From assembly GCA_964635715.1 (NCBI GenBank), contig CAZWNZ010000001.1, forward strand, positions 74,358-138,357: DNA of 64,000 bases, in the 5' to 3' direction. The translations under genes and the position numbers were made by a program. Within the stretch, counting starts at the first letter, position 1. Each line of letters begins with the position of its first letter. A model generated the notes under the pieces. It made no database searches. It was given only the letters and a program-made list of their open reading frames with translations, and was not told where the DNA came from. The DNA comes from an uncultured Gammaproteobacteria bacterium. Lineage in GTDB: Bacteria > Patescibacteriota > Microgenomatia > UBA8517. Of the stretch, positions 8,002 through 64,000 are shown in pieces.

Positions 8002-8262
8002 ATGGTTATTGAAAAGAAGGTTTGGCCTGAATATTTTAAAAAAATTAAGTCTAGTGACAAAACATTTGAACTAAGACTTGCTGATTGGAAATGTAAAACT
8101 GGTGATATCTTGATACTTAAAGAATGGGACCCAAAAACCAAAGAATACACAGGTCAAGAGATTGAGAAAAAAGTTACCTATGTGATTAAAACAAAGGATC
8201 AAAAATTTTGGAGCAAAGAAGAAATTGAAAAATACGGTCTTCAAGTAATTGGGTTTAAATAA
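8002..8262 (+). CDS. DUF3850/ASCH-like small protein
   Basis: MVIEKKVWPEYFKKIKSSDKTFELRLADWKCKTGDILILKEW matches the DUF3850 pattern (KxWPEYFxxVxxGxKTFExRxND...GDxLxLxEW). Confidence 0.55.
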   Translation: MVIEKKVWPEYFKKIKSSDKTFELRLADWKCKTGDILILKEWDPKTKEYTGQEIEKKVTYVIKTKDQKFWSKEEIEKYGLQVIGFK

Positions 8263-14382: not shown

Positions 14383-14385
14383 TTT

Positions 14386-15876: not shown

Positions 15877-15880
15877 AACC

Positions 15881-15901
15881 AGATACCAAATTCTAGCTAC
15901 T
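15881..15901. repeat. Short heptamer array (AGATACC AAATTCT AGCTACT) between convergent gene ends
   Basis: Shares the TCTAGCTACT core with the array at 49899..49930. Confidence 0.4.
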
Positions 15902-43492: not shown

Positions 43493-43740
43493 GGATATTT
43501 TTCTAAAATTCTAACTTATCAACAGCAGTATTAAACTTATCCACAAATTTATTCACAAATTACTACGCATAATATCAACACAAAAACATCCCGAAAAACG
43601 AATTCGAAAGTGGTTTCTTTTCAACTTATCAACCCTTTCTACTACTAGAACTACTAGTATATATATGATAAATACAAGAAAACCGAAAACAAATAAATAT
43701 TGATTTTTGAGTGTTTTCCTTTTACCCTTAACCTACTGTT
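43493..43740. promoter_or_regulatory. Putative oriC segment in the dnaA-dnaN spacer (DnaA boxes plus AT-rich unwinding stretch)
   Basis: TTATCCACA perfect at 43537..43545; one-mismatch boxes TTATCAACA 43516..43524, TTATTCACA 43549..43557, TTATCAACC 43626..43634; AT-rich tatatatatgataaata near 43660. Confidence 0.6.
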
Positions 43741-44868: not shown

Positions 44869-45321
44869 TTATTTTTGTGGAACTTCATCCATCGGGGAAT
44901 TTTTAAGTATATTTGGTTTGAAATTTAGTTCTATTGGGGGAATTACTTCTCCTGTTGAAGACTTTGCTTCGATAGTCATTTTGTATGAAACTTCATATTG
45001 CCACCCCTCCATTGCTCGTACAAAGAGAGACGTGTTGTTGTCATCGGTTTCAATAATTGTGTCTGTTTGGGGATTAGTGTTAATAACGAGAGAACTGATA
45101 TCGATCGGTTTTGAAAAATAGAATTCTATAGAAGAAGTGCTTAAAAGTGAACCTGAAGAGTTATTTTCCGGAACTGATTTTATAAGTTTAAATTCTACAT
45201 ACGGGGTAGGTGTCGGTTTTTGTCTAAATCCGACGCCAGACTTAGAAAGGATCCAAACTATTGACAAGACAGATAGAACAAGAAGAATAAAAACTGGTAC
45301 AATTTTTTTGTTTTTTAGCAT
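44869..45321 (-). CDS. Small exported/anchored beta-rich protein, hypothetical (last gene of the T4SS-like operon)
   Basis: N-terminal TM/signal (IVPVFILLVLSVLSIVWIL), Ig-like-looking remainder. Confidence 0.35.
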   Translation of the reverse strand: MLKNKKIVPVFILLVLSVLSIVWILSKSGVGFRQKPTPTPYVEFKLIKSVPENNSSGSLLSTSSIEFYFSKPIDISSLVINTNPQTDTIIETDDNNTSLFVRAMEGWQYEVSYKMTIEAKSSTGEVIPPIELNFKPNILKNSPMDEVPQK

Positions 45322-45335
45322 AACTAAATTATAAC

Positions 45336-48023
45336 TTATTTGCAGAAATAGTCTTCCGGTTTAACCCAGCGACCGTTCATTTGAAACTCAATGTGTAAAT
45401 GAGTATTTGATCCTTGGTTAAAAAGAGTGGTAATCTTTTGCCCCGACGTTACTGTTTTTGGAACTATTTTACTTGCAACGTGAGTAAGGACAATTGAATA
45501 TGAACCTGTAGTATCTTTATATATAACCGAAAAACCAACTCCGTTGTTGTTGAAGCTTCCGTCATAATTCCATACTACTTCTTTTCCTAAAACTGTCGGA
45601 GCATAGACGGTATTTATTCCAGAGGGGAATACGTCGAATGCATATCCGTAATACGAGCAGGCTGGAGAGTCGCAACCTGTTTGTTGAGGTAATGAGTATC
45701 TATAAGGGATTCCTCCCATCATATTCCAATAAGAAGTACTTCCATGGCCCGTGTTGGTGGCTGGATTGTAGGAAAAATTGTTTTGATTAAGAGGTACGGC
45801 TGCCGGGACAGGGCATGAAATGGGTGGGGTCCCAAAAGTAACCGACGCGCTTGTTTCTGCTGTTGTGCCGGTTACTTCTCCCGTATCCGCTGTCACAGTA
45901 ACAGTATCTATTATTGCCGAATTTGTAAAACTGTTGTCGTAAGTTGAAGTATAGGTAAACACATATGGAAGGGATGGTGATATTGAGTCTATCGTAGTTG
46001 GAGCGTCACTAATTGGAGGACAGTTTTTATTGGCCGTACTAATTACTTTGCAGTCGTATTTAATAGATATGTTTGTAAGGGCACTTCTCTTAGCCCTGAT
46101 TGTTATTTTATAAGTAATTGTCTTCGGAAGTTCTTTGTTTGTAAAAGGTCCGGGCGGCTCCGGAGTTTTAATAATATCAATATACGGATTAGACGTTCTT
46201 CCAAAAGTACTTTCAGACACGGGGACTACATAGGCTCCGGAGTTGATTATAAAAAGAATTAAGGCAACCACAATAGGCAAAGCAAATATGGTTATTAAAA
46301 TTGGCATGCCAATGGAAGAAAAGACTGCTCCCCCCAGAGCTGTAAAAAATCCCCCTATGCTTCCACCCACTACACCAAGAGAAGAAATTCTACCGGAAGC
46401 AAAACTTGCAAGAAAACCGGTGCCCACACCTAGGGCAACCGCTCCCGCTAAACCAATAAAAGGAGCTGTAATTAAGGCAATAACGGAACCTACTATGTAA
46501 GGAGCTGCTTTCTTAACTTTACTCCAATCAATTTTACTTGCAATAAAACCAATCACTGCTCCAATGGCTGTTCCAATAACTGGAACCACACTACCAGCAG
46601 CGGCGCCGGTGCCTGCGCCAGCCGCTCCTCCTGCGGCAGTTCCGACAGCTTTTCCTGCAAATGAACCAGCCAGCTTACCTGCTGTACTTGTGACAGCTTT
46701 TTTCCCAATCTTTTTACCGGCTACAGAGACTATCTTTTTTATTCCAAAATTTATACCGGTTTTCCCTCCGATAAAATTCAAAATCGGTCCGAAACCATTT
46801 TGTACAGCAATTCTTCCGAAAAAAGTTGTCCCTTCCCACGCAACAGCAGAGGTGCCCATTCCAAAATAGGACAAAGCACCCTGAACAGGTATAGAACTGT
46901 ATGTTTTGGCCAGTAAACTATCAACAGGTAATTTATCAATTAAACCATCCAGTCGCACAGAGGCCCTCCGTAAAATACTTGTTTTTATTTTGTCTATACC
47001 GAATTCTTTTACTTCCCCAAGGAAAGAACCTTGGTTATTAAGCAGGTCCAGATTGGTTTGAGGAATCTGGGACAAATTGTACTCATGGAAATCTGTCTGC
47101 GGTGAGTCAGAAAAGGTTATTTGTAGTTTATCGATCTCTTTGGGTCCAAAAACCACATTGGTAAAATTTTCTCCAAAAGTGGAAACAATCAGTTCACGAT
47201 TGAAAGAATACTTGGCAAAGTATTGATCCGAATTCTCTAAAGCAACGTTAATAAAATTTTGTCGGAGATTGATATCTGGTAATGTTTTTGTAATTAAGTC
47301 TTCATTTGTGGCAAATGCACTAGTAATAACAGTTTCTTCGGCCAGTGATTTGCCTTGGAGATTTTTTACCGTTTCGTATGCAGCCTCTTTGGCCAGAATG
47401 CGCATTTCTTCTTGTGTGGTGTTTTGCGGATTAGACAAAGAAATTTTGTTTTCGATTGTCTCGGTTATTTGGTCGACCAATCTTTTGGGGTCTGCTTTTG
47501 CGGCCTCTTTAAGTACGTCAATTTGTTTTGCTTGCTCATCGGATATTGGTGGGATTTCAGTACCCTCAACTTTTACATATGTCTTCGTGTTTTTTAGTTG
47601 ATCAAAAAGTTCTTGCCTTCTTTTAATTGAGGCCTCGACTTCTTTTTGAGCTTTTTGGATGGTTTCTTTAATCTCCGCCTCGCGTTTCTGTTGCTCCATT
47701 TCTTGGAGCTCACGCGTTTCTTTGTCGGGTAAATTGGACTCAACTGGTTTTTCTTCGTTTTGAGATCCTGAGACAATCCCTACCAAGGCTTTTTGAGCAT
47801 CATGAACTGTTAGCAATCTTTTTTGGGCGTCTTTTGCACTCAAATCTATTTGTACACCCGTCAGATTTTTAATAAAATTTACAAAAGATTGTCGATTTTT
47901 CCAATTGTATTCTCCAGAATAAAATGGCGTATCGGATGAATATATGGCGTCTTCCGGAAAAAAATGTCCAAAGGCCAACATTAAATCGTCCAGATTTTTT
48001 TGTGTAATACTAATTTTTGCCAT
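45336..48023 (-). CDS. Giant bifunctional protein: cytoplasmic coiled-coil N-domain, Gly/Ala-rich multi-TM block, extracellular M23 peptidase domain (candidate T4SS cell-wall hydrolase, VirB1/PrgK-type role)
   Basis: E/K-rich coiled coil; about 6 TM helices in a GAGTGAAAG-rich region (aa ~470-600); C-terminal M23 motifs (...AFDVFP... and SNTHLHIEFQMNG); 2 nt downstream of VirB4. Confidence 0.6.
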   Translation of the reverse strand: MAKISITQKNLDDLMLAFGHFFPEDAIYSSDTPFYSGEYNWKNRQSFVNFIKNLTGVQIDLSAKDAQKRLLTVHDAQKALVGIVSGSQNEEKPVESNLPDKETRELQEMEQQKREAEIKETIQKAQKEVEASIKRRQELFDQLKNTKTYVKVEGTEIPPISDEQAKQIDVLKEAAKADPKRLVDQITETIENKISLSNPQNTTQEEMRILAKEAAYETVKNLQGKSLAEETVITSAFATNEDLITKTLPDINLRQNFINVALENSDQYFAKYSFNRELIVSTFGENFTNVVFGPKEIDKLQITFSDSPQTDFHEYNLSQIPQTNLDLLNNQGSFLGEVKEFGIDKIKTSILRRASVRLDGLIDKLPVDSLLAKTYSSIPVQGALSYFGMGTSAVAWEGTTFFGRIAVQNGFGPILNFIGGKTGINFGIKKIVSVAGKKIGKKAVTSTAGKLAGSFAGKAVGTAAGGAAGAGTGAAAGSVVPVIGTAIGAVIGFIASKIDWSKVKKAAPYIVGSVIALITAPFIGLAGAVALGVGTGFLASFASGRISSLGVVGGSIGGFFTALGGAVFSSIGMPILITIFALPIVVALILFIINSGAYVVPVSESTFGRTSNPYIDIIKTPEPPGPFTNKELPKTITYKITIRAKRSALTNISIKYDCKVISTANKNCPPISDAPTTIDSISPSLPYVFTYTSTYDNSFTNSAIIDTVTVTADTGEVTGTTAETSASVTFGTPPISCPVPAAVPLNQNNFSYNPATNTGHGSTSYWNMMGGIPYRYSLPQQTGCDSPACSYYGYAFDVFPSGINTVYAPTVLGKEVVWNYDGSFNNNGVGFSVIYKDTTGSYSIVLTHVASKIVPKTVTSGQKITTLFNQGSNTHLHIEFQMNGRWVKPEDYFCK

Positions 48024-48025
48024 AA

Positions 48026-49894
48026 TTATTTGTCAGCGTATGGATTGGTGTTTACCTTCACAACTTCCTGTGGTTTAGTTGTAATTAATCTGTTTTCTTC
48101 TTCCGAAGCAACAATTCTAATTGGGGCATGGTGTGGCCCTGCAAAGAAAATGCCTTCTCCAACATTGGCTGCAAGAAGAAGCCTTTTTTCTCCTTGGGAC
48201 AAATAGAAGACCTCGCCAATCTTATCAATTGCGGCAGGGGATTGCTTTAAGAGAAGCTGCATGGCGCTATTTGTGACAATAGCCTTTCCAATGTCCTGTC
48301 CGAGGAAGTCCTCGACGTCCTGAGTGATTGTAGTGAGTCCTAGATAGTATTTACGGGCCCTTTTAACAACACTCCATAAAAATTGGGCAGTATCGGGATA
48401 TCTCATCATGTGCCAAGCTTCATCTACAATCAAAATTCTTCTCTTGAGATTCTTTTTAACCCTAGTCCAAATATAGTCGAGAATAATAAACATGGCGATT
48501 GGGCGAATGGCGTCCTGCATATCTTTAACAGAAAACACAGTGAAGGGATTGATAATGTTAATGTTAGTTTGTTGATCGAAAATTCCTACAAAGCTTCCTC
48601 TAACAAATTTTTCAAGTCTGGCGGCAAGATCCAGAGCTTCAGGTGATTCCATGCCGATCAGGGTTTTGTAAAGATCTTCCATGAGAGGGGGTTCTTTGCC
48701 TTGGGTCTCGGGATCCATAGTAATTCCTTTGGCCCGATAAGTCATTATTAAGGCACGGTCAAGCAATGCCTCCTGAATTGGGGTGATTGCCCCCATAATC
48801 ACTTTCATTAGGGAATGAAGAGAAAGTATTTTTAGTCCAAGCTGATTTTCACCCTCTTCACGGATTTGGGACAGATCAAAAGGATTAATTTTTGCCTGGG
48901 AATTGTAGGAGAATGATATATATTCACCACCCACCGCTTCGGCTATAGATTTATATTCGCTTTCAGGATCAATAACTATTGTTTCGACCCCTGTCATGAG
49001 CGACCTTAGCGCCTCAAGTTTAACAAAATAGGATTTACCGGCTCCCGATGTTGCAAAAATTGTCATGTTGGCATTTTGCAGGCTAAACCTATCAAAAATA
49101 ATAAAAGATTCGTTTTGAGAATTCATTCCATAGAGAACACCTCTGTCACTTGAAAGTTCGGTTGAGGTTAGGGGAAAAGTTGTGGCAACCGATGTGGTAT
49201 CCATATTTCTGGTGATGTTAAGGCGGTCGATGCCAAACGGGGCAGTTGCCAAAAACCCCTCTGACATATTTAGCATGGCATGTTTGCTGACAATCATAAG
49301 GGATCCAAGTTGAGATTCGACCTGTTTAGTTATTTGATTCAGTTCCTCAACGGAATTTGCAGGGATTGTAATGTAAAAACCAAATTCGTAAAATCTTTCA
49401 ATTCCTTTAACTAATTGTTCCTGCAGCGCCTGAGCATCCTCTAATTTTGCCTGTGTCACCGGATCAACCAGTTTTCCCCGTTCGATATCTGTGGTCATTT
49501 CAGCTTCCATTTCGGCGATTTTTCGCCTTAGATCATCAAGAACGCTCTTTCCGTCGACTGGATAGATATAAAAAGAAATATCCAAAGAGGTATCAATATT
49601 GACTACGGGTTCGAGCCACCCCGGGGCGACAAATCTTGGATATCCACCGACAAAAATTGTCCTGAAATAGACATCGTTGACTTTGATATAGTCAAAATCA
49701 ACCTCAACCGATTGGGGTGAAATTACATCAAGTAGGTTCATTCCCTGATTCATAACCGAATAGGCGGCTGAAACAACCGGAGGCTTAACCTCCGTATTAG
49801 AATCTTGAATCTTGAATCTTGAATCTTGAGACGTGGAGCCTAAATCCTGATCTGCAGGTTTTATATTTGGTGTTTTTGTAATATTGTTTTGCAT
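48026..49894 (-). CDS. VirB4/TrbE/CagE-family T4SS ATPase, C-terminal ~620 aa (middle plus ATPase domains)
   Basis: Walker A IFATSGAGKSYFVKLE, Walker B ILIVDEAWHMM (the hhhhDEAW typical of VirB4), mid-domain KVNDVYFRTIFVGGYPRFVAPGWL. Confidence 0.8.
   Translation of the reverse strand: MQNNITKTPNIKPADQDLGSTSQDSRFKIQDSNTEVKPPVVSAAYSVMNQGMNLLDVISPQSVEVDFDYIKVNDVYFRTIFVGGYPRFVAPGWLEPVVNIDTSLDISFYIYPVDGKSVLDDLRRKIAEMEAEMTTDIERGKLVDPVTQAKLEDAQALQEQLVKGIERFYEFGFYITIPANSVEELNQITKQVESQLGSLMIVSKHAMLNMSEGFLATAPFGIDRLNITRNMDTTSVATTFPLTSTELSSDRGVLYGMNSQNESFIIFDRFSLQNANMTIFATSGAGKSYFVKLEALRSLMTGVETIVIDPESEYKSIAEAVGGEYISFSYNSQAKINPFDLSQIREEGENQLGLKILSLHSLMKVIMGAITPIQEALLDRALIMTYRAKGITMDPETQGKEPPLMEDLYKTLIGMESPEALDLAARLEKFVRGSFVGIFDQQTNINIINPFTVFSVKDMQDAIRPIAMFIILDYIWTRVKKNLKRRILIVDEAWHMMRYPDTAQFLWSVVKRARKYYLGLTTITQDVEDFLGQDIGKAIVTNSAMQLLLKQSPAAIDKIGEVFYLSQGEKRLLLAANVGEGIFFAGPHHAPIRIVASEEENRLITTKPQEVVKVNTNPYADK
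49800..49827. repeat. Four perfect GAATCTT heptamers at the 5' end of the VirB4 ATPase ORF
   Basis: gaatcttgaatcttgaatcttgaatctt; encodes QDSRFKIQDS at codons ~23-32. Confidence 0.7.
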
Positions 49895-49898
49895 ATTT

Positions 49899-49930
49899 TC
49901 TAGATTCTAGCTACTAACTACTAGATTCTT
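49899..49930. repeat. CTAG-rich heptamer array (TCTAGAT TCTAGCT ACTAACT ACTAGAT) in the 19-nt gap separating the two VirB4 ORFs
   Basis: Provides TAG stops on the coding (minus) strand between 49914..50648 and 48026..49894. Confidence 0.6.
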
Positions 49931-50648
49931 GTTTGTCCAATATAACTTCCGGTTCTTTTTTAACAGCCGGCTTCTCGGGATTGTAAATGGAATAGTAAAG
50001 ATTGATAAGCTCAGGTGTGGTAAGTTGTTTGAATTTCAGTCCCAATCTCCCTGCCTGGCGGATCAAGTGGTCGCGTCTTGGATAAAGGGTGATTTTTGCT
50101 TTCTTAATAACGTACGATTTCGGAAATGGCAGGGGTCCTCCTCCTTTGGTAATCGCGGCTACAGATTTGGCAATACCAAGTTCAAGGGGGGATAAATAAA
50201 GGATAACAAAAAATCTTTTACCCAAAACATTTTTCTTTTTAACGGATTCACTGATAAAGTTCCGGTAGTTTTGCATCAAGTTGGAGAGTAGCGGTTGGGT
50301 CATTTTTTTTGCCTGTTCATCGAGAAAATTCAGATAGGATGAAATATCTTTTTTCTGTGTCAGAACTACAATCTGTGTAGAAAAAGTCAGAGAGTTTATC
50401 ATGGCTGCATAGGCTGCAATTACCGCCTCTTGTTCTTTTTCTGAAAGGAGACCAAAGTTTAAAGAAGTAGATTCCATAATGAGTGAGGCGCCGCCATCTT
50501 TATAGATAACAATGTCGTTTGTTATATCCGCAACCGGCACGAAATCCTGTGTTGTGGCCGTAAGCGGTTTGTCGGGAACACTCAGGAAAGGAATCTTAAG
50601 TTTAGAATTTTGAATCTTGAATTTTGAATCTTGAATTTTACTATTCAT
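49914..50648 (-). CDS. VirB4 N-terminal-domain-like protein (separate ORF; apparent split of the VirB4 gene)
   Basis: DITNDIVIYKDGGASLIMESTSLNFGLLSEKEQEAVIAAYAAMINSL resembles the N-terminal region of monoderm-type VirB4 ATPases (tentative, by eye); 244 + 622 aa equals the usual VirB4 length; 5' end carries the heptamer-encoded MNSKIQDSKFKIQNSKLKIP. Confidence 0.5.
   Translation of the reverse strand: MNSKIQDSKFKIQNSKLKIPFLSVPDKPLTATTQDFVPVADITNDIVIYKDGGASLIMESTSLNFGLLSEKEQEAVIAAYAAMINSLTFSTQIVVLTQKKDISSYLNFLDEQAKKMTQPLLSNLMQNYRNFISESVKKKNVLGKRFFVILYLSPLELGIAKSVAAITKGGGPLPFPKSYVIKKAKITLYPRRDHLIRQAGRLGLKFKQLTTPELINLYYSIYNPEKPAVKKEPEVILDKQESSS
50591..50639. repeat. Seven-unit heptamer array (GAATCTT/GAATTTT alternating) at the 5' end of the VirB4-N ORF
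   Basis: gaatcttaagtttagaattttgaatcttgaattttgaatcttgaatttt. Confidence 0.65.
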
Positions 50649-51016
50649 TTTATTAGTTTTGATTTTTTAATCAGCCCATTTAATATTTTCAAAGTAATTA
50701 CGGATTGATCATATAAATGATCGAACTCCTTTTGTCCAATAAATTTGACATCTCGGGATATGATTAGTTGGTTTTGCAATTCGGTAATAGACCCTGCTGA
50801 GATTCTAAAGAACTGCAATTTTTCTTTATAGGAATATCTACTAAATCCTTCAGCAATATTGCTTGTTATTGAAACTGCACAACGCCTCATTTGATTTGTA
50901 ATTCCAAACATCTCAGATTTCGGAAAATTACCAGTCACTTCGTAGATGCCAATAACAAGTTGATGCCCTTCTTTCCAGGCATTTAAATCAGTAAAATTAA
51001 TAATTTTATTTTCCAT
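50645..51016 (-). CDS. Four-helix-bundle protein (TIGR02436 / 23S rRNA-IVS protein / Avd family)
   Basis: ITNQMRRCAVSITSNIAEGFSRYSYKEKLQFFRISAGSITELQNQLIISRD is a textbook family signature; ATGA-coupled to VirB4-N and abutting the stop of the upstream gene. Confidence 0.8.
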   Translation of the reverse strand: MENKIINFTDLNAWKEGHQLVIGIYEVTGNFPKSEMFGITNQMRRCAVSITSNIAEGFSRYSYKEKLQFFRISAGSITELQNQLIISRDVKFIGQKEFDHLYDQSVITLKILNGLIKKSKLIK

Positions 51017-52108
51017 TTAATTTAATGGTGTTCCACTAGATTCGAGATTCAAGATACTAGATTCTACTTGTAGTCTTTTTCCTGTAACAAGTATTGGTGG
51101 AATTATCTCTCCCTTAGCCTCAAAATTGACGGGCATAAATTGATAACCGTCCTTTTCGCTGATAATGCTGTATTTCCCGTTTTCGAGAGGTGTGACTGCC
51201 ATAAAATGGCCAAGCTTGTTGCTTCTGAGAGCCCTTATTGGTCTTCCATATTCATCTCGTATTTCGATTATTGCGCTTTCTATTATTCTTCTGGCCTCAT
51301 CGACAACTTGTCCGACAATAACATTTGGACTGGTTGGGGGATTGGGCGGTGTGGCATCGATCGAGAATATCGCCTCTTTTGTAGACACTATTTCCTCACC
51401 GACGACTGTCGGATTGACTTGCTGAGTTTGGAATTGTGCTGTTTGGTCAATGATTTTTGGTTTTTCCTCCACAACAAGATGGGAGGTCTGTGGTGAAACA
51501 ATTTTAACAGGGTTGCTTACCGGAATTTCAAGTTTTTTAGGTTCAGTAGAAGCTACAGGTTGGTTGGTTGGTTGGGCTACTGTCGTAGCCAGTGGTGTTT
51601 TAATACCCGCAAGTATGCCGGCTAGTTTGGAAAAAAAACCTTGTTCAGCAACCTCGAGTTTGGCAAGTGGTCCTTGCGGAGACCTGGAGCTGTCAAGATA
51701 GTTTTTAACAGCCGCATCCTGATTTTGTGTTTGAGAATTTGGGATGTTTGAGGACGGACTTTCGTCCTGAAAAAATTTCCGGATACCTGTTGTTTTTTTC
51801 CAGTGGAAAGTAGTAGGAGAATAAATTGCTTTAAAGAAAGCCAGGATCCACTGTTCCAGTGGGCGTTCCTCAAGAGGAACAAAAGCCATAGCAGCTCCAA
51901 GAATGACAAATATAATTATAAAAGGCCATTTAATAATTCCCGGAAGGGGGGTTGCGTAAAATATCAAACCAACTAATACGCCCCCCGCAAGTTCAAAGAA
52001 TTGCTTAAGAGTCATATCTCCAACCAATTTGAATTGGTAAGAACTTACGTTTTGTGGTATCGGATGTTGTTCCATGCTCTTGAGCAGGGCGAAAGAGCAC
52101 AAAAGCAA
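51017..52108 (-). CDS. VirB3/PrgI-like two-TM membrane protein with a long Q/P/T-rich extension and C-terminal beta domain (tentative)
   Basis: TM hairpin FFELAGGVLVGLIFYATPLPGIIKWPFIIIFVILGAAMAFVPLEERP in the position VirB3 usually occupies upstream of VirB4. Confidence 0.4.
   Translation of the reverse strand: MLLCSFALLKSMEQHPIPQNVSSYQFKLVGDMTLKQFFELAGGVLVGLIFYATPLPGIIKWPFIIIFVILGAAMAFVPLEERPLEQWILAFFKAIYSPTTFHWKKTTGIRKFFQDESPSSNIPNSQTQNQDAAVKNYLDSSRSPQGPLAKLEVAEQGFFSKLAGILAGIKTPLATTVAQPTNQPVASTEPKKLEIPVSNPVKIVSPQTSHLVVEEKPKIIDQTAQFQTQQVNPTVVGEEIVSTKEAIFSIDATPPNPPTSPNVIVGQVVDEARRIIESAIIEIRDEYGRPIRALRSNKLGHFMAVTPLENGKYSIISEKDGYQFMPVNFEAKGEIIPPILVTGKRLQVESSILNLESSGTPLN
51038..51065. repeat. 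Heptamer array (AGATTCG AGATTCA AGATACT AGATTCT), opposite orientation to the array at 50591..50639
   Basis: agattcgagattcaagatactagattct; lies in the 3' end of the upstream CDS. Confidence 0.55.
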
Positions 52109-52193
52109 AGCTTTTTGAGTCTTACCCTATACTTTTAAGACTATCCCGTGAAGGGGGTAATTCAAGGGGAAACCTTTTTCACAAGGACTAAAC

Positions 52194-52784
52194 CTAGTTG
52201 GCACTACAACAACAGCAACCCACATCACTATCATGATCGCTGCTACTATAGCTAGAATTGCTGTCATACACTTTTCTAGAAGGATCTATGTATGCCTTGG
52301 CCAACACCTCTTCAAGTTTATTAGCATTTTGCCAGTCTTGTTTTTGTAGACAAACCAATGCCTGTGCGTTAATGGATATGGATTCGTTGTCGGGAGCAAT
52401 TTGAATCTCTATAGATGAATAGTCATAACTACCCGTATGGTTTGAATCAACCTTTCCGTCGGCCCCAATTTTAAAAGATGTTCCCCAAACAAGTGCGATT
52501 CTACCTGTAGATGCAACATATTTTAGTTGATGGCTTTTAACATTACCATCAAGCATCTCTTTATCTATTCTTTCAAGGCAGTGAAGGATATTACTACTTC
52601 CGACAATTTCATTATTTTTAGAAATTACAAATTGAAGTCTTCTTTCCTCAGCTTCCTTTTCAAGCCTCTTCTTTTCTTCGTTAGCCAACCTTTCTTTTTC
52701 GAGGACCTCCTGACGGGCTTTTTCCTGTCTGGCAGCCTCCTCAGCTCTTTCCTGTTGAATACGCTTTATTATTTCAATTGGCAT
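52194..52784 (-). CDS. Hypothetical protein with coiled-coil N-terminus and Ser/Cys-rich C-terminal tail; candidate YcaO/SagB substrate
   Basis: Ends ...YDSNSSYSSSDHDSDVGCCCCSAN; lies immediately downstream of the SagB-type dehydrogenase in the same operon. Confidence 0.4.
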   Translation of the reverse strand: MPIEIIKRIQQERAEEAARQEKARQEVLEKERLANEEKKRLEKEAEERRLQFVISKNNEIVGSSNILHCLERIDKEMLDGNVKSHQLKYVASTGRIALVWGTSFKIGADGKVDSNHTGSYDYSSIEIQIAPDNESISINAQALVCLQKQDWQNANKLEEVLAKAYIDPSRKVYDSNSSYSSSDHDSDVGCCCCSAN

Positions 52785-52818
52785 ATTTGGCTGTATTATA
52801 TGTCTACAACAATAAAAG

Positions 52819-53451
52819 TCAAGCTCCTATAGCCAAATAGTATATTGGATATTCCTCACGGGGATTTATGTCGAGGAGTTTAATTAGCGGCTTTTCGTTT
52901 AACATTCCAATTGCACAACATCCGATTCCAAGACTCGTTGACAGTAAATATATATTTTGCGCAACATGCCCAGCTTCAATATAAGGAAAATACATCCCTC
53001 TTTCTTTATATTTATCTGTGGTTCTATGAAATACAGAAGTAAGAATTATCAAAACAGAAGCTTTTTTGAACCATAACTGTTTTGTCATCCAGATCTGATC
53101 AATATCCTTGGTTGCCATTTTTCTGTGTAGAATTTCTAACCCATGACTAATTGGATTGTAGTGATATAAACCTTGCCTAATATTTCCGCCTTTCATGACA
53201 AGTATATAAGCCTCGAGCGGATATTTTGCGCCAGCAGATGGATAAACACGAAAGGGGTTTTTTTCTTCATAAGGATTTTGTCTAATTGCCGCTAGACTGT
53301 GGTATAGAATATCAGACAAAGTCTTTTTGCCCACCGTTTTTCCTGTAAAGTTCCTAGATGATGTTCTACTTTTTATGATTTTTCTTAATTCTCCGGCCGT
53401 ATTTGTTCGGGGGAGTGGTATTTTTTCTAACCTGGAATAAGTTTTGTGCAT
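52819..53451 (-). CDS. SagB-type (nitroreductase-fold, FMN) dehydrogenase of azoline/azole RiPP pathways
   Basis: RTSSRNF...YPSAGAKYPLEAYILV...GLYHYNP...KYKERGMYFPYIEAGHVAQNIYLLSTSLGIGCCAIG matches the TIGR03605 SagB-type pattern. Confidence 0.7.
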   Translation of the reverse strand: MHKTYSRLEKIPLPRTNTAGELRKIIKSRTSSRNFTGKTVGKKTLSDILYHSLAAIRQNPYEEKNPFRVYPSAGAKYPLEAYILVMKGGNIRQGLYHYNPISHGLEILHRKMATKDIDQIWMTKQLWFKKASVLIILTSVFHRTTDKYKERGMYFPYIEAGHVAQNIYLLSTSLGIGCCAIGMLNEKPLIKLLDINPREEYPIYYLAIGA

Positions 53452-53453
53452 AC

Positions 53454-54812: not shown

Positions 54813-54886
54813 AAGGATATTTTAGCACGGGTTAGCAATTTTTAACTGTATTTCAATTCACCCTGATCATGTTATATAATTAGCCT

Positions 54887-57622: not shown

Positions 57623-57636
57623 TTGAAGATTAAATT

Positions 57637-59511
57637 TTAAGTACCACCCTCAACTTTGGGTTTTTTGTTTTTCAAAGCTTCCTTTACCCTGGTTGTCCAG
57701 TTGGCAAGTTTGTCTTCCAGAGCCACCTTTCTGGCAGTTTCTAAATATGGAGCCCCTGTTTGTCCCCAGGCCCACTTGGCTGGTCCAAATGCCTCCCCAA
57801 TTGCACTACCATAAGCAAACGGCTTACCTGTAATGAACCCTTGGACAATTTCAGTGGCCTTGGGAATTAAAGTAAAAACAACGAAACTTACTGCCATAAA
57901 AATCAATCCAACAACCAAGGAATTATTACTCAGACCCAAAAGAGGAAGTTGTACGGAGCTGGATAACGCTTGGTTGGTTGTTCCCAAAATGGCATCTGCA
58001 ATACTTGATCCAGTAATTAGTCTCAAAAGTCCTGCCCCAAAACCGTTTGGGAAAGCATTTTCGATCCCTAAGAGAAGAAAAATGTATGCCAACAAAAATA
58101 AAACTCCAGTAATTACAAAAACAGCAAGAGACGAAACAAAGCTTTTTAGCCACGAAGCAAAACCTAAATTAGAAATAATTATACCAGCTGTTATTTGAAG
58201 CGGAGCGGCTATTGTTAATAGAAATATTTGGGCACAAGCTTTGGTGAGTTTCCATACAATTTTAATAGAGGTGACAAGTGTCATAATAGTAATTATTATT
58301 AGCAAAATAATGTAAACAATCACGCCGACTGAGAGTATGTCTCCAAATCCTTTAAGAACGTCTTTAATGTAAATAGCTAGGCCAAATGAAAAATATTTTG
58401 AAAATTGAGTCAAATAATTGGCGACTAAGGCAAACACACCTTTTCCGTCTGGACCGTTAGTTAGCCAGCTGAATACATAAGCAGCGCTAGTATCTCCATA
58501 TTCCGATCCTGGAACAGCTTTGACGATTGGGGCAGCAAAAATACTAATCAATCCTATTACGACATACATGAGATCGATTAGAAATCCAGCTATTGCATAC
58601 GAAAAAGTTACCAGAACTAAGGCAATCAATATTTTAGGGATGGCTGATTGAATGGTGATTACAACTTGTGGTGATATTTTAACTCTGAACATTACCATGA
58701 ACGACAAAACAATGGCGGCAATCACAAAAAGAATGTAAGCCATGTTTCGCACAGCGACCCACATATTTTGGACTACTTCTAAAAACTGAAAACCGACACC
58801 CATATCGTTTGTTTGCGCTTTTACACTTTTAACAGGTTGAAGTTTTTGAAAAACACCCTTTGTATAAGAAATTCCTGAAAAAGGGCGATCGTCGGCAAAA
58901 ACTGCTGCTAATAAAGGAGTATTGGCATGATCCGAACCTGCAATTATATTGTTTTTAATTTTCAAAAAAGATTCAGAATTGGAAACGTCCTCCAGTATAC
59001 ACGTATCTTCAGTTCCACCATTTAATAAACATTGGATAGCCGACACAGAACCCTCACCTGATGTTGAGTTTATAATAAAGCTGTAAATACTATAAAATAT
59101 CCACTGAACCTGTGCTGCAGTATATCTTTCTCCGAAAATCTCATTGGGGTTGGAGTTGTCATATACTTTACTTGACCATTCCTGAAAAGATTGGTTGTAC
59201 CAAGTTCCGGATGAAGCCGTTGTTGATGATGTTGTTGTAGAGTCACCACTGACACACGCTACATCTGTCGCGCTTTGACAAGATTCTTTATCAGTTATGG
59301 CAGTGCAATAATCGGAGTCGACCTCATAACCATCATTACAATCGGCATATGATTCTGCTTCCGCCCTACATGAAGTTAAGTTCCACTTACATTCAAAAGT
59401 GTTGGTTGCCGCTTGTATTTTGGAAACGGGTGCGGCAATGAAATAAAACAAGCCAAAGATAAAAAAAGATGCGAGCAGTTTTTTCATTTGATTTATCCTT
59501 AATCTTATCAA
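57637..59511 (-). CDS. VirB6/TrbL-like polytopic T4SS membrane protein with Cys-containing extracellular N-domain
   Basis: Signal peptide (MKKLLASFFIFGLFYFIAAPVSKIQA from 59487), 6 or more TM helices, hydrophilic C-terminus; located between the pilin array and the VirB3/VirB4 genes. Confidence 0.45.
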   Translation of the reverse strand: MIRLRINQMKKLLASFFIFGLFYFIAAPVSKIQAATNTFECKWNLTSCRAEAESYADCNDGYEVDSDYCTAITDKESCQSATDVACVSGDSTTTSSTTASSGTWYNQSFQEWSSKVYDNSNPNEIFGERYTAAQVQWIFYSIYSFIINSTSGEGSVSAIQCLLNGGTEDTCILEDVSNSESFLKIKNNIIAGSDHANTPLLAAVFADDRPFSGISYTKGVFQKLQPVKSVKAQTNDMGVGFQFLEVVQNMWVAVRNMAYILFVIAAIVLSFMVMFRVKISPQVVITIQSAIPKILIALVLVTFSYAIAGFLIDLMYVVIGLISIFAAPIVKAVPGSEYGDTSAAYVFSWLTNGPDGKGVFALVANYLTQFSKYFSFGLAIYIKDVLKGFGDILSVGVIVYIILLIIITIMTLVTSIKIVWKLTKACAQIFLLTIAAPLQITAGIIISNLGFASWLKSFVSSLAVFVITGVLFLLAYIFLLLGIENAFPNGFGAGLLRLITGSSIADAILGTTNQALSSSVQLPLLGLSNNSLVVGLIFMAVSFVVFTLIPKATEIVQGFITGKPFAYGSAIGEAFGPAKWAWGQTGAPYLETARKVALEDKLANWTTRVKEALKNKKPKVEGGT

Positions 59512-59537
59512 ACCAATGCAAAAAATGTTAGTAGGTT

Positions 59538-61949
59538 TTAATAACAGTCAGCGCTAAAGGGATACCCAGTAAAGTTGCAGCTTGTCATTGTGTTCCAATG
59601 GATATCCATAAGTTCCATATATTGTTCTGCTTTAGGTGGTAACTCTTTCTTGTCTATATTACAGTATCCGTAATAGTAAATAGAAAAGAACATTTCGGTG
59701 TCGCGCCCCTTGCCGAAACATGAAGCATACTGAGGAGCGGTTTTATAATATTCCATAAGTTCGAAAAACTCATTAATTTGTGCAGTAAAACCTCTGTACT
59801 TGGAGCTGTTTATCCCAAAGTCCTGATTGGAAATTTCATAATTACTTGCACCGCTCTCATTTACCCATAGGAGTAGTGTAAATGCAGGGTTTACGTTAGC
59901 TGCAATAGATTTTCTGACAACATCGTTATAGCATTCCAGAACATGATCACCCTCGCGTCCTTCCCAAGCGATTGCAAACTCATGCAAGTCTTCCTTTGAA
60001 ATTAATTTTGGTGCTAAAGAAGATACATCGGCAGCCGTTTGGTCGCAATCGATCCCTGTATTTGTTATATCTTCGATGATGTCATTTTCTGCAAAAGCAA
60101 TTTGTTCCCCATACCCCTTTGGTCTGAGAGCTGTTTGGATTCCCTTTAGGAAGTACTCCGAAACTCCTCCGACGTGGGGAATTTTAAGGTCGGTATTAGA
60201 CTCACTCATATCCGTGCCGGAGTATGTGATGTTGGAAGAACCTGCTATGTCAATTATTTTCCCGACGCCTCCCTCAGTGTTTGTTTTTGGAAAAATTCTC
60301 TTAAAAACTGACATGGATCCTGCCACAAGACGCGACCAGACATCATCCACAAGGGGAATGTTGGACTGAGTGGAAAGATTTATATAAACCTTTTTACTGC
60401 ATTTTTGCCTGACAATTTGAGGAATACACTCCTTGTCTATAAGCGAACCACAACGTTCGCCGACATAATGACCGTTATAGCACATGCAATCAAGAGGCTC
60501 GGTATCGCAAGGTTTGTCTATCAGAGAACCACAGCGTTCGCCGACATAATTTCCGTTAATGCACATACAGTCGAGAGGGTCATCTTCCGTGGTAGGTTCG
60601 TTAAATATGCAGGTAAAGCCGGCGGTATAAGAAAGGTCTCCTGTTAGTTGATTGGCAAAGAGGTCGTCTCCTGCATTTGAACGTACTTCCACGGTGCTGC
60701 ACGATGTATCTGAAATATTCGTAGGACTACTTACTTTCTCCTCTCCTTGCGGTATATAAGTATCCTGTAAAAGCGAACCTAACTCATCGGCTTCGACCAT
60801 GTGAGGCAGAAATAGAGTGGAAGGCAATTGGTTGGAAAAAGTGATGTTTTTAACCGTAACCCCGGTAGTATTTAGATTGGTTGATGAGGAAACGTTATCT
60901 ATTTTAATATTTCCCTCCACATCTTCTGTTGATGAGAGGGAAATATATGGAAAAAGTTCCGCATATTTGCTTTTAACAAGAGGATTTTTTACACAAATGA
61001 GTTGATTGATAACAGGTATTAGGGCACATGTGTCTCCCTGCCATTCTCTATATGCTTTAAGATATTCTTTTTCATTTTCAAATTGTTCATTCCAGGGGAG
61101 AGGAGGGGTTCTTTTGTTCCAAGCTACACCAACATATCGATTGATTTCTTCGGATGTAGCATTCGGTAAAAGATTTAGGATGGCTCTCTTTAAAATATTG
61201 GAAATACCTCTGGTGATACCAAGACCGCCACTTTCCCATTCTGTAAGGCGATATGTATTGGAAATGACACTATTTTCATCATGACACCCAACAGGATCTC
61301 CACTTAATGAAGTACAGACGACAACTTTATCGTGCTGCGTCTCCTTAGCTGATTCTATCATTTCAATTTGCTGAGCTTGTTGGATAGCTTGAGGCAGAAG
61401 TTTTTTTAGTGGCCCGGAATAATTTACAAAATTCTGATCAGTGTCATTGGCACTGCCATATTCAGTGCGGTTTGTGACACCGTTTAAGTACCAGCTGACA
61501 TATTCATTCATTTTTTGAGCGTCATCAAAACTCTCCTCGGAACTTTGCGAATTGATAACATCCTCAGTATTGCCCATAATAGGCAACTCAGCTCCGCTTA
61601 GGTTGATAGTCACGCTTTTGTTTACGTCTATATTGTATGTGCAGTAAATTTTGCCGTTTTTGGTCGTGCAGTCACCGGGAGTTCCGGGATAGTAAATATC
61701 AATGGTATTGGTAAGCGTTAAATCAGTTCCACAGTATGTTGCATAGTCTGAGACGCTGCTGGAACATTGTGTGTTTGCTTGATAGGGTCTAAGAGAGTGA
61801 AACTCTTCATCGTCGGCCAGTGTGCTATCGGTTGTTTCATCGCACTTTATATTTGTATTTGACGGAATCTGGGAGTGAACAGATGTTGGATCAAACAGGG
61901 ATAGAAAAAGAAACAAGGGAATTAGAAAGAGAACATGCAGTTTATTCAT
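59538..61949 (-). CDS. Large secreted Cys-rich protein with tandem EGF-like ~24-aa repeat; candidate surface adhesin or T4SS-associated surface factor
   Basis: Signal peptide MNKLHVLFLIPLFLFLSLFDPTSVHS; PLDCMCINGNYVGERCGSLIDKPC / PLDCMCYNGHYVGERCGSLIDKEC tandem. Confidence 0.5.
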   Translation of the reverse strand: MNKLHVLFLIPLFLFLSLFDPTSVHSQIPSNTNIKCDETTDSTLADDEEFHSLRPYQANTQCSSSVSDYATYCGTDLTLTNTIDIYYPGTPGDCTTKNGKIYCTYNIDVNKSVTINLSGAELPIMGNTEDVINSQSSEESFDDAQKMNEYVSWYLNGVTNRTEYGSANDTDQNFVNYSGPLKKLLPQAIQQAQQIEMIESAKETQHDKVVVCTSLSGDPVGCHDENSVISNTYRLTEWESGGLGITRGISNILKRAILNLLPNATSEEINRYVGVAWNKRTPPLPWNEQFENEKEYLKAYREWQGDTCALIPVINQLICVKNPLVKSKYAELFPYISLSSTEDVEGNIKIDNVSSSTNLNTTGVTVKNITFSNQLPSTLFLPHMVEADELGSLLQDTYIPQGEEKVSSPTNISDTSCSTVEVRSNAGDDLFANQLTGDLSYTAGFTCIFNEPTTEDDPLDCMCINGNYVGERCGSLIDKPCDTEPLDCMCYNGHYVGERCGSLIDKECIPQIVRQKCSKKVYINLSTQSNIPLVDDVWSRLVAGSMSVFKRIFPKTNTEGGVGKIIDIAGSSNITYSGTDMSESNTDLKIPHVGGVSEYFLKGIQTALRPKGYGEQIAFAENDIIEDITNTGIDCDQTAADVSSLAPKLISKEDLHEFAIAWEGREGDHVLECYNDVVRKSIAANVNPAFTLLLWVNESGASNYEISNQDFGINSSKYRGFTAQINEFFELMEYYKTAPQYASCFGKGRDTEMFFSIYYYGYCNIDKKELPPKAEQYMELMDIHWNTMTSCNFTGYPFSADCY
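60405..60560. repeat. Tandem ~72-nt duplication inside the secreted-protein CDS (encodes the Cys-rich repeat)
   Basis: gaaccacaacgttcgccgacataatgaccgtt... vs gaaccacagcgttcgccgacataatttccgtt... Confidence 0.65.
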
Positions 61950-61973
61950 GACAATTCATTATAACAGTAGAAG

Positions 61974-62270
61974 TTAATTGGGGAGTACGACGTTAAAATC
62001 GGTAACATTTGCTCCGGTCAGATTCTTTATAAGTAAAAGAATTAAATAAGAGACAAGGATAATAACAAGCCCTGTAATCGCAGAAGTTAATGTTTTTTTG
62101 GCTCCCTCCGCAGCTTTCGGGTCTCCTCCTGATGTAATAAATTTAAAGCCACTAATTATTAGAAGAAAGAACAGAACTATTCCTGCCAAACCTAACGCAT
62201 AGCCAATTATGTTTTTAAAAACATCTCCCAGGTCGGCGATTGTAGCAATAGAATCACTAGCCATAAGCAC
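61974..62270 (-). CDS. VirB2/TrbC-like T4SS pilin, paralog 1
   Basis: Two hydrophobic helices flanking ITSGGDPKAAEGAKKTLTSAITGL. Confidence 0.55.
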   Translation of the reverse strand: MLMASDSIATIADLGDVFKNIIGYALGLAGIVLFFLLIISGFKFITSGGDPKAAEGAKKTLTSAITGLVIILVSYLILLLIKNLTGANVTDFNVVLPN

Positions 62271-62307
62271 ATTCTAAACTAAAAAAAGTTAGCGGGCAAT
62301 AAGACGG

Positions 62308-62643
62308 TTAAATTGAGGGGATAGCCAAAGAGAATATGTCAACACCGAAGAAGGTATTGATAAGGGCTACAATTGCCCATGCGGCGAAGACTATTACAAG
62401 GCCGACAAGAGCTGCTGTAATTTGGTTTCTGGCAGTTTCAGTTTTGACTTTATCTCCACCTGACGCAATCCATTTGATACCACCAATAACCAAAATGAAA
62501 AAGAAAATAATTGCAGCAACTATGACAATCAACCTGATACCACCCGAAATAATTTCAGGAATGGTCAAATCTCCTAATTTCTCAAAATTGGAATCACTTG
62601 GTTGAAGTTCAATTGTATCGGCTGCTAAAAGTAATTTTTGCAT
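62308..62643 (-). CDS. VirB2/TrbC-like T4SS pilin, paralog 2
   Basis: IKWIASGGDKVKTETARNQITAALVGL; the ORF runs to 62763, but the start at 62643 (MQKLLLAADT) avoids overlap with paralog 3. Confidence 0.5.
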   Translation of the reverse strand: MQKLLLAADTIELQPSDSNFEKLGDLTIPEIISGGIRLIVIVAAIIFFFILVIGGIKWIASGGDKVKTETARNQITAALVGLVIVFAAWAIVALINTFFGVDIFSLAIPSI

Positions 62644-62656
62644 TTGTATACAAGTA

Positions 62657-62983
62657 TTATCGAATAAATAGTTTACTGATGTCAAGAGCCAGTAGGTCAA
62701 TATTAAAGAAATGCTCCAACAATTCAAGTACTGCAAACGATGCGAAAAGAATAATAAGTCCAACCAAAGCGCTGGTTATTTTCCCGCGTGCGGCTTCGAC
62801 AGCTTGCTTGTCTCCACCGGAAGTGATCCATTTGATTGCTCCCATAACTAATGTAAAAAAGAAAATCACTACACCGATGATTAAGGCTAGGGTTATAAGT
62901 TTGGGGACAAAGTTTTGGAAAAAAGTTACACCATCAGAACCCAGATCTGATGTTATTGGATTAATTATTGTACTGCCTCCCAT
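62657..62983 (-). CDS. VirB2/TrbC-like T4SS pilin, paralog 3
   Basis: IKWITSGGDKQAVEAARGKITSALVGL. Confidence 0.55.
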   Translation of the reverse strand: MGGSTIINPITSDLGSDGVTFFQNFVPKLITLALIIGVVIFFFTLVMGAIKWITSGGDKQAVEAARGKITSALVGLIILFASFAVLELLEHFFNIDLLALDISKLFIR

Positions 62984-62985
62984 AT

Positions 62986-63354
62986 TTATTTGTTTAAATT
63001 AGTAATATTGCCAAATAGGCTGGTAAGATTCAAGATATCCGCTATACCCAGGATCTTTCCGATCAAACTTACTATCAAAACAGCCAAAAGTACGACAATC
63101 AAACCAATGATACCTGTTGTTATTCTTTTCCTCGACCCTTCCAAAGCCTGTTTGTCTCCGCCCGCACCGATCATGCTGATGGCTCCTGTTATAAATACAA
63201 ACAAAAACCAGATAATTGCAACAACAGTCATTACCCCGATTGCCATAGAAATAATAGAAGAAAGCTTACTAACACCATCACCAACATTTTCTCCCAAAGT
63301 TCCGATTCCCACAAAACCGTCTTTTGGTGCAATTGATAAAGCTAGTGTTTTCAT
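62986..63354 (-). CDS. VirB2/TrbC-like T4SS pilin, paralog 4
   Basis: ISMIGAGGDKQALEGSRKRITTGIIGL. Confidence 0.55.
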   Translation of the reverse strand: MKTLALSIAPKDGFVGIGTLGENVGDGVSKLSSIISMAIGVMTVVAIIWFLFVFITGAISMIGAGGDKQALEGSRKRITTGIIGLIVVLLAVLIVSLIGKILGIADILNLTSLFGNITNLNK

Positions 63355-63866
63355 AGTTCCGGTATTGTCGGGTTAAGTATATATGTTGCGTCGCCAAAAA
63401 TTAATCGTCCAAAAATAGCTGCCAAGACTAACGCTCCTGCTGCAACCAATAGACCAACTGCCGTTTGCCAGATTTTTGCCCAAGCTCCGGCGACTTTTTT
63501 GGGATCATCACCTGCAGAGAGGAAAGAGTATCCTGCAAGAATAAAATTAATAAGTGCATAGACTCCGGCGCCGGCTATTAAGATCCAAATAGCATACTGG
63601 ATTACTGTCCCAATAGCCGTACCCGGATTATCCCCATATTTGGATAATGCCGCTGGGGTGTCAATTTTTCCAAATGGGTTGTTGCTGGTGCCGCCTGAGC
63701 CAGTGTTTGATATACAACAATGTGCACTACAATAATATCCGGAGCCACACTCAGAAGAAGTGCTGCATTCGTATGGATAACATGCCGCCCGAATACTATT
63801 AGTCTGCAGTAATAGGAAAAAGCCAAAACTTAAAAGTATATAAAGGAATTTGGTTGTTATTTTCAT
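63351..63866 (-). CDS. VirB2/TrbC-like pilin, paralog 5, with signal peptide and extra Cys-rich N-terminal module
   Basis: AACYPYECSTSSECGSGYYCSAHCCIS followed by the pilin core FLSAGDDPKKVAGAWAKIWQTAVGL. Confidence 0.5.
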   Translation of the reverse strand: MKITTKFLYILLSFGFFLLLQTNSIRAACYPYECSTSSECGSGYYCSAHCCISNTGSGGTSNNPFGKIDTPAALSKYGDNPGTAIGTVIQYAIWILIAGAGVYALINFILAGYSFLSAGDDPKKVAGAWAKIWQTAVGLLVAAGALVLAAIFGRLIFGDATYILNPTIPEL

Positions 63867-63870
63867 TTGT

Positions 63871-64000
63871 TTAGATAATATCAGGCATTCCTAACAGTTG
63901 TCCGATCAATTTTACTATCCAATAGGATGCAAACACAACAACAAGGCCGATTACAGCAGAGGTAATAGTCTTTTTGGCTTGTTCATTCTTTTGAGGATCG
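63871..64000 (-). CDS. VirB2/TrbC-like pilin, paralog 6 (3' part only; truncated by the window edge)
   Basis: Reverse translation DPQKNEQAKKTITSAVIGLVVVFASYWIVKLIGQLLGMPDII*. Confidence 0.45.
   Translation of the reverse strand, partial: DPQKNEQAKKTITSAVIGLVVVFASYWIVKLIGQLLGMPDII

Follow-up and report, generated by a model that had tools for sequence, protein, structure and literature searches.

The closest described relatives of the locus treated here are the type IV secretion systems (T4SSs) of Patescibacteria. In these bacteria, Quinonero-Coronel et al. (2025; PMC12102498) describe a VirB4 clade that is related to MPF-FATA, abundant homologues of TrsD and of PrgI/VirB3, and arrays of 2–11 VirB2-like genes, which occur especially in Microgenomatia and Saccharimonadia. 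The same authors find relaxases nearly absent from Patescibacteria T4SSs, many distal genes for type IV coupling proteins (T4CPs), a location of the T4SS near dnaA, dnaN, and rnpA in Microgenomatia and Paceibacteria, and a VirB6 that is "scarce" in Microgenomatia, presumably by way of divergence. According to the accounts of Wang et al. (2023) in PMC12857230 and PMC11665869, Southlakia epibionticum, a member of Saccharibacteria, cannot grow as an epibiont without the T4SS and its pilin array; both papers leave the role of the Patescibacteria T4SS between effector delivery and import. The locus examined here runs from position 44869 to the end of a 64,000-nucleotide stretch of contig CAZWNZ010000001.1, which was analyzed as a whole and is referred to as the window. 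We consider it very probable that this locus encodes a chromosomal, vertically inherited, non-conjugative T4SS for host interaction of the type that is typical of Patescibacteria (the Candidate Phyla Radiation, CPR), here in Candidatus Woesebacteria. The system is real, conserved, and already published (described in 2023–2025); the window provides a clean Woesebacteria example of it and not a new kind of system. Such T4SSs are among the few candidate machines for host exploitation by ultra-small, biosynthetically poor bacteria.

In terms of gene content, the window locus shares with the Patescibacteria clade an MPF-FATA-related VirB4, a separate TrsD, a PrgI/VirB3 homologue, and a tandem VirB2-like array, has neither a relaxase nor a T4CP nearby, and sits beside dnaA, dnaN, and rnpA as reported for Microgenomatia, so that no essential difference from the published system is seen. 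What it adds is a VirB6 candidate for Microgenomatia from position and fold, a set of collinear, orthologous pilin paralogues, a conserved slot for a gene on the opposite strand, C-terminal domain swaps in a large transmembrane (TM) protein, and the insertion of a YcaO cassette in this lineage. The Prg/Pcf system of pCF10 from Enterococcus faecalis, the MPF-FATA prototype, likewise has a VirB4 of the CD1110 family and PrgI, and its order prgH-prgI-prgJ-prgK-prgL is matched here by genes for a VirB6-like, a VirB3-like, a VirB4, a large wall-associated, and a small bitopic protein. This parallel places an 895-residue protein at the position of the PrgK hydrolase and a 150-residue protein at the PrgL/VirB8 position, an assignment that is positional only. 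pCF10 has the coupling protein PcfC, a relaxase, and LPXTG adhesins but no pilins, whereas the window locus shows the reverse and has the pilin array only; unlike in pCF10, VirB4 is split from its N-domain in the window, and neither an SLT nor a CHAP domain was detected. The MPF-T systems, Trw of R388 and VirB of Agrobacterium, have in common with the locus VirB2-like pilins, VirB3, VirB4, and a hint of the TrwI/VirB6 fold. They differ in that the locus is without VirB5, B7, B8, B9, B10, B11, and D4, and in that it is chromosomal and non-conjugative in a monoderm organism.

The motor of the system is encoded by three minus-strand genes. The 622-residue product of 48026–49894 is a VirB4 ATPase of the CD1110/MPF-FATA type: its score for NCBIfam NF045971 (conju_CD1110) is 375.7 bits (cutoff, 325), P-loop_TraG matches with E = 9.7e-27, and the protein contains both a Walker A motif (ATSGAGKS, residues 281–288) and a Walker B motif (ILIVDEAW, residues 487–494). 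The VirB4 assignment of a preliminary description of the stretch, which was made from the letters without database searches, is thus upheld, and the profile search places the ATPase with VirB4 of the CD1110 type and not with a HerA/FtsK-type family. The adjacent gene (49914–50648, minus strand), which had escaped the preliminary description, encodes a separate TrsD/TraC-like protein of 244 residues with a TrsD/TraD match; the score for NCBIfam NF041427 (TrsD) is E = 3.2e-8 and 33.7 bits, under the curated cutoff of 200. This protein aligns to positions 102–234 of VirB4_plasma and positions 2–110 of conju_CD1110, that is, to the N-terminal part of VirB4 profiles, and therefore VirB4 is accompanied here by its detached N-terminal domain. 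The orthologues of the TrsD-like protein in relatives match PF26593 (TraC-like). The third motor gene (51017–52108, minus strand) encodes a PrgI/VirB3-like protein of 363 residues, with a PF12666 score of 32.6 bits (gathering threshold, GA, 27) and TM peaks at residues 37–55 and 61–79, in agreement with the VirB3-like protein with two TM helices that had been proposed. Its long extracellular tail ends in a β-sandwich, with a CarboxypepD_reg-like match at residues 264–323, and its true start is likely the ATG at 52075 (MEQH at residue 12).

According to the open reading frame (ORF) listing and translation, the genes that lie between 44869 and the end of the window are on the minus strand throughout, except for a single plus-strand gene at 54887–57622. 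All of the minus-strand genes of the preliminary description are present (VirB3-like, VirB4, large TM protein, polytopic protein, Cys-rich protein, and pilins), together with five that it does not mention: those for a 23S-rRNA-intervening-sequence protein (IVP), a YcaO protein, a SagB-type dehydrogenase, a CCCC-tailed protein, and the 911-residue product of the plus-strand gene. The locus is flanked by dnaA (42131–43492, plus strand, Pfam DnaA match), dnaN (43741–44862, plus strand, Pfam DnaN match), rnpA, yidD, yidC, and jag. These flanking genes, a cluster of three DnaA boxes in the dnaA–dnaN spacer (43516–43557), and the minimum of the cumulative GC skew at 40–42 kb of the window together place oriC at dnaA–dnaN. 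The gap between the last T4SS gene and the dnaN stop measures 6 nucleotides, and the two genes are convergent; next to dnaN, the operon therefore has its 3′ end and does not start there, 7 nucleotides after the dnaN stop, as had been stated. No Pfam match to VirD4 or another coupling protein, to a relaxase, or to an integrase was found in any ORF of at least 120 residues in the entire window, as the preliminary description had also reported. The GC content of the locus (0.37–0.41) is the same as in the remainder of the window, which consists of housekeeping genes (UvrD-like helicases, LeuRS, MetRS, GroEL, TsaD, ribosomal protein L25, and others), and the only tRNA gene in the window lies 23 kb from the locus, with none flanking it. 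The VirB4 homologues with 82–96% identity come from Candidatus Woesebacteria/Microgenomates assemblies, and the host of the locus is a member of Candidatus Woesebacteria (Microgenomatia). The two T4SS transcription units, which are on the minus strand and to the right of oriC, would hence be transcribed head-on to replication, an arrangement that is unusual for strongly conserved genes. Scans for promoters and terminators gave no signal above shuffled controls.

The arrangement is conserved among relatives. Besides the window, four independent Woesebacteria assemblies reach dnaN (L002–L004, L005–L006, L093, and L094), and a fifth relative, L007, has the same T4SS part and ends inside virB4. 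The shared order begins with the pilins and continues through the genes for the Cys-rich protein, the VirB6-like protein, an opposite-strand gene of 750–910 codons, PrgI, TrsD, and VirB4, after which follow the large TM protein, a small TM protein, dnaN, dnaA, rnpA, yidD, yidC, and jag. This order and the junction with dnaN are kept in all four further assemblies that reach dnaN; examination of the synteny around dnaA–dnaN thus shows the T4SS genes of relatives to be clustered, not dispersed. Among the proteins compared with their counterparts in L002 and L005, VirB4 (93% and 82% identity, respectively) and the TrsD-like protein (88% and 78%) are followed by DnaA (86% and 71%), YidC (81% and 73%), DnaN (77% and 62%), and the PrgI-like protein (76% and 59%), with much lower values for the Cys-rich protein (48% and 29%), the 895-residue protein (39% and 29%), and the VirB6-like protein (34% and 44%). 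VirB4 is accordingly better conserved than DnaA, DnaN, or YidC. Judged from these identities, the constraint on the cytoplasmic motor is no weaker than that on the replication machinery and the surface parts evolve fast, and the combination of a constrained cytoplasmic core with fast-evolving surface parts would be the pattern expected of a core machine for contact with the host.

The candidate for VirB6 is a polytopic protein of 624 residues (57637–59511, minus strand). It consists of a signal or anchor sequence, a conserved ectodomain (WYNQ...EIFGERYTAAQVQW), and, by its TM peaks, about seven TM helices. Pfam (E up to 5) and PDB profile searches gave no match. The family is large, with 1009 word-index matches and at least 3412 clusters at 50% identity at E up to 1e-3, none of which carries a Pfam domain, and no transitive link to an annotated VirB6/TrbL was found, with only close family members among the 150 matches listed. 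An AlphaFold2 model built with 53 homologues has a pLDDT above 90 across the TM region. When this model was compared with 350,542 PDB chains by Foldseek, the six best matches were all TrwI/VirB6 of the R388 T4SS, with probabilities of 0.63–0.97 and TM-scores of 0.30–0.43 and E values of only 0.04–0.3; hhalign against the single sequences of PrgH and TrwI found nothing. The model-based match suggests that the 624-residue protein is likely VirB6, an identity that is unproven. The VirB6/TrbL-like label of the preliminary description is hence borne out as to the polytopic nature of the protein, and the homology that it implies amounts to a fold-level hint from a non-significant Foldseek match, with no profile support.

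Two membrane proteins are encoded between virB4 and dnaN. The first, of 895 residues (45336–48023, minus strand), lies directly downstream of virB4 at the PrgK/VirB1 position and is composed of a cytoplasmic, coiled-coil N-terminal half, a Gly/Ala-rich TM cluster (TM peaks within residues 476–593), a conserved ectodomain, and a variable, enzyme-like C-terminal domain. The preliminary description had called it a giant TM-anchored M23 hydrolase with a VirB1-type role. It is a TM protein, but the M23 label is weak: Peptidase_M23 scores 20.4–22.4 bits (GA, 28.7) over profile positions 30–96 only, the half that carries HxH, and an HLH motif is present at residue 875 while HxxxD was not found in the protein. 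By contrast, the true M23 peptidase encoded at 21983–22663 (plus strand) scores 105 bits and has both HxxxD and HxH. The weak match is moreover specific to this genome, as the L002 and L005 orthologues end in HExxH instead (LSHELGH and LTHEVSH, respectively). In this family the last ~150 residues are swapped (window 45336–45800, compared with L002 11858–14710 and L005 11859–14813) and the remainder can be aligned; the HExxH motif of the orthologues is zincin-like and stands where the window copy has its M23-like HLH end. From its position, a role of the 895-residue protein in remodeling of the wall is plausible. The last gene of the operon (44869–45321, minus strand) encodes a 150-residue protein with an N-terminal TM helix (TM peak, residues 7–25) and an Ig-like ectodomain, for which Big_5 scores 23.4 bits (GA, 23.6). 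L002, L005, L093, and L094 each have a single-TM gene of 140–192 codons at the same site, with almost no sequence similarity. Its place corresponds to that of PrgL, the VirB8-like protein of pCF10, and by this position only it would take the VirB8 role.

At the end of the window lies an array of six genes for VirB2-like T4SS pilins (61974–64000, minus strand; PF18895), as had been predicted from six tandem VirB2/TrbC-like small proteins. Five ORFs are complete (61974–62270, 62308–62643, 62657–62983, 62986–63354, and 63351–63866), and the sixth, which runs from 63873 to beyond 64000, is cut by the end of the window, with a C terminus that matches PF18895 (T4SS_pilin). Three of the five complete pilins score above the GA of 26.6 for PF18895 (38.9, 33.3, and 32.0 bits) and two below it (21.1 and 19.8 bits). 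All have two TM helices and a G(G)D..K loop, and the small proteins thus belong with the T4SS_pilin family and not with unrelated membrane families. The window pilins are collinear, one-to-one orthologues of the L007 pilins with 46–81% identity, compared with 18–37% among paralogues, from which it follows that the paralogues of the array are distinct and old and do not stem from a recent amplification. The ancient, fixed order of these paralogues argues against simple antigenic variation by way of recent amplification. The pilin at 63351–63866 (minus strand) has an N-terminal signal peptide and a six-Cys knot (CYPYECSTSSECGSGYYCSAHCC) that are missing from its L007 orthologue, and in L007 it is instead the first pilin of the array that bears a similar Cys-rich extension (L007 6412–7029 compared). 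The array comprises eight pilins in both L007 and L008. Beyond it in these two relatives lie divergently oriented genes, namely SpoIID-like, bPH-domain, an NHL-like gene of 628 codons, smpB, and comF-like, and no T4SS or mobility genes were found past the array in either. L008 (CAZIPM010000014.1) is labeled "uncultured Gammaproteobacteria bacterium"; it has a Woesebacteria-type pilin array with flanks that are syntenic with those of L007, and the public record probably contains a binning or labeling error here.

Between the pilin array and the VirB6-like gene lies the gene for an 803-residue secreted, Cys-rich protein (59538–61949, minus strand), with a signal-like N terminus, 26 cysteines, and a tandem 24-residue Cys repeat, PLDCMC.NG.YVGERCGSLIDK.C, at residues 458 and 485, consistent with the secreted Cys-repeat protein of the preliminary description. 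Orthologues occupy the same position in L002, L005, L007, L093, and L094, with 29–48% identity where compared, and a scan of genome contigs with the protein found two relatives. The protein has no match to Pfam or PDB sequences. An SLT-like motif (LWxxESGxSNY...DFGI) was considered in this protein and was dropped after negative Pfam (E up to 5) and PDB profile searches. The tandem duplication of the Cys motif (residues 458–508, 60400–60580) occurs only in this genome; the copy in L002 and L007 is single or divergent.

Taken together, the profile families and the clustering in relatives uphold the earlier proposal of a minimal, relaxase-less, monoderm-style CPR T4SS with a pilin array. The absence of a relaxase, coupling protein, and integrase from the window indicates that this is not a conjugative element but a machine for interaction with the host. 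For its workings, we infer assembly of a pilus and a channel as follows. The CD1110-type VirB4 and the detached TrsD-like N-domain would form a motor, which the PrgI/VirB3-like protein with its two TM helices would tether to the membrane, and the polytopic 624-residue VirB6-like protein would probably provide the channel. Passage through the cell wall may involve the 895-residue protein, which sits where monoderm systems encode a wall hydrolase, and the at least six ancient, diverged pilins together with the secreted Cys-rich protein would make up the extracellular structure, presumably a pilus or tube and a tip or adhesin. As to substrate and direction of transport, by analogy with Saccharibacteria the machine would most likely deliver something to the host cell or take something from it. 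Several points weigh against this interpretation. The homology to VirB6 is not significant (best Foldseek E value, 0.044; hhalign and Pfam negative), the M23 match of the 895-residue protein is sub-threshold and not common to its orthologues, and profile searches found no VirB8-like or VirB1-like domain above threshold in the locus. The window stops inside the pilin array, and the scope of the analysis ends with it at 64000; L001, the one contig that matched in exact-protein look-ups, spans only the part from VirB4 to RNaseH. A VirD4 homologue could be encoded elsewhere in the genome, given the distal T4CP genes of Patescibacteria (PMC12102498), and the proposed function in Woesebacteria is extrapolated from Saccharibacteria.

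The same machine might also work inward, as a ComB/Ced-like importer of host DNA or nucleotides for an organism unable to make its own. This we regard as unlikely, though deserving of some weight: a system with no relaxase or coupling protein in the window and with a comF-like gene near the array in relatives would suit an importer, and import is raised in PMC11665869 on the grounds that competence is dispensable but the T4SS essential in S. epibionticum. VirB4 does match the archaeal DNA importers CedB (50.9 bits) and CedD (30.3 bits), but these scores fall far short of the respective cutoffs (700 and 600 bits), the locus shows neither a DNA-binding component nor a nuclease, and no feature of the sequence points to a direction of transport. 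A pilus that serves adhesion only, whose pilins and Cys-rich protein would fasten the cell to the host without any translocation, appears improbable to us. The six to eight conserved pilin paralogues and the large secreted Cys-rich protein would fit such a structure, as would the fast evolution of the surface parts, which is seen in adhesins; however, attachment in cultivated Patescibacteria is already the task of type IV pili (PMC12857230), and the locus has retained its ultra-conserved VirB4/TrsD/PrgI motor. Hardly tenable, finally, and largely refuted is an accessory mobile island, that is, an integrative and conjugative element or its remnant inserted next to dnaN at the origin, as the preliminary description had framed the locus: T4SS genes are classically borne on mobile elements, VirB4 belongs to the conjugative CD1110 family, and the locus holds variable cargo (the IVP gene, the YcaO cassette, and, in L005, PycTM), but the gene order and dnaN junction kept in four other independent assemblies, a VirB4 that is conserved beyond DnaA, DnaN, and YidC, and a GC content like that of the rest of the window leave "accessory" and "inserted" without support, and there is moreover no integrase, relaxase, or T4CP in the window, no tRNA closer than 23 kb, and a proximity to dnaA/dnaN that is the rule in Microgenomatia (PMC12102498). 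The locus yields details that can be tested, namely the likely VirB6 of Microgenomatia and a motor more conserved than replication proteins beside surface parts that evolve fast.

Genomes differ in what lies between the VirB6-like gene and the TrsD-like gene. In the window, this variable region holds the YcaO cassette, the IVP gene, and the gene for the 911-residue protein, all of them cargo and not core parts of the T4SS. The last of these (54887–57622, plus strand), between the VirB6-like and PrgI-like genes, encodes a soluble protein with no cysteine and no TM helix. Each of the six Woesebacteria loci examined has at this slot an opposite-strand gene for a soluble protein of 749–911 residues (besides the window, in L002 at 5394–8096, L005 at 3795–6140, L007 at 14085–16643, L093 at 5135–7384, and L094 at 5097–7376). 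The window protein has no match in Pfam, NCBIfam, or PADLOC, and Pfam and PADLOC searches with the slot proteins were likewise negative. The slot protein is 34–41% identical among the window, L005, L093, and L094, while VirB4 is 82–93% identical; for the proteins of L002 and L007 no similarity could be detected, though L002 has the closest VirB4. The slot is conserved and its soluble protein evolves rapidly, and this protein could be screened as a candidate substrate; that it is in fact a translocated substrate of the relaxase-less T4SS is speculation.

The YcaO cassette (52194–54812, minus strand) consists of a YcaO cyclodehydratase of the SagD subfamily (53454–54812; YcaO, 7.5e-51; TOMM_cyclo_SagD, 213.7 bits, just under the cutoff of 219.25), a SagB-type dehydrogenase (52819–53451; antibiot_sagB, 122.8 bits; cutoff, 78.4), and, as its third gene, one for a 196-residue soluble protein that ends in GCCCCSAN (52194–52784). 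The trio is conserved in L007, L009, and L012 and in about 10 metagenome loci, and is absent from L002, L005, L093, and L094. A word-index search with the 196-residue protein yielded four clusters, all of which begin with MPIEIIKR and end with GCCCCS(AN/GR); in three of the four (window, L007, and L012) the gene lies directly upstream of that for PrgI. A metagenome scan with an alignment of this CCCC-tailed protein gave 600 pattern matches and no true relative, and Foldseek returned nothing significant for it. With the YcaO alignment, the metagenome scan found 16 loci in which YcaO is 41–59% identical, and where the sequence continues, a dehydrogenase follows and then a protein of 195–260 residues whose linker is rich in Ser and which terminates in a cluster of Cys (e.g., GCCCETCCS, ECCSH, and CECCCECSC). 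No E1-like partner was found in any YcaO cassette locus. The metagenome loci contain no T4SS genes within the available flank of up to 6 kb; a functional link between the cassette and the T4SS was rejected on this ground. The cassette, which is widespread in metagenomes, is therefore a module independent of the T4SS that came to lie in its variable region in one sublineage.

The cassette, and only the cassette, is reminiscent of thiazole/oxazole-modified microcin (TOMM) or azole RiPP (peptide made by the ribosome and modified after translation) systems of the NHLP-like kind, in that a SagD-subfamily YcaO and a SagB-type dehydrogenase are encoded beside a product with a Cys-cluster tail. Structured, protein-like leaders that are recognized by YcaO have precedent in NHLP (PMC12455567), and by this analogy the long, structured N-terminal part of the 196-residue protein could act as the recognition element. 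The three genes could yield a new kind of product, an azole-modified folded protein rather than a peptide, with the product composed of a globular domain of putative frataxin-like fold and a disordered tail that ends in CC(CC). The joint proposal that the slot protein is a polymorphic effector translocated by the T4SS and that the YcaO cassette makes such an azole-modified folded protein is one that we consider quite doubtful.

The remaining cargo gene (50645–51016, minus strand) encodes the IVP, a four-helix bundle protein (PF05635, 1.7e-34). L002, L007, and L093 lack it at this site, and L005 (1637–1993) and L094 (7576–7959) have it elsewhere in the same locus. In the window, this bAvd-like gene is squeezed in between those for the PrgI-like and TrsD-like proteins, where stop and start codons overlap, and no reverse transcriptase is encoded nearby. 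In L005, the same variable region carries at 7550–8074, in place of the YcaO cassette, a gene with a PycTM domain, which is a domain of Pycsar-type defense effectors.

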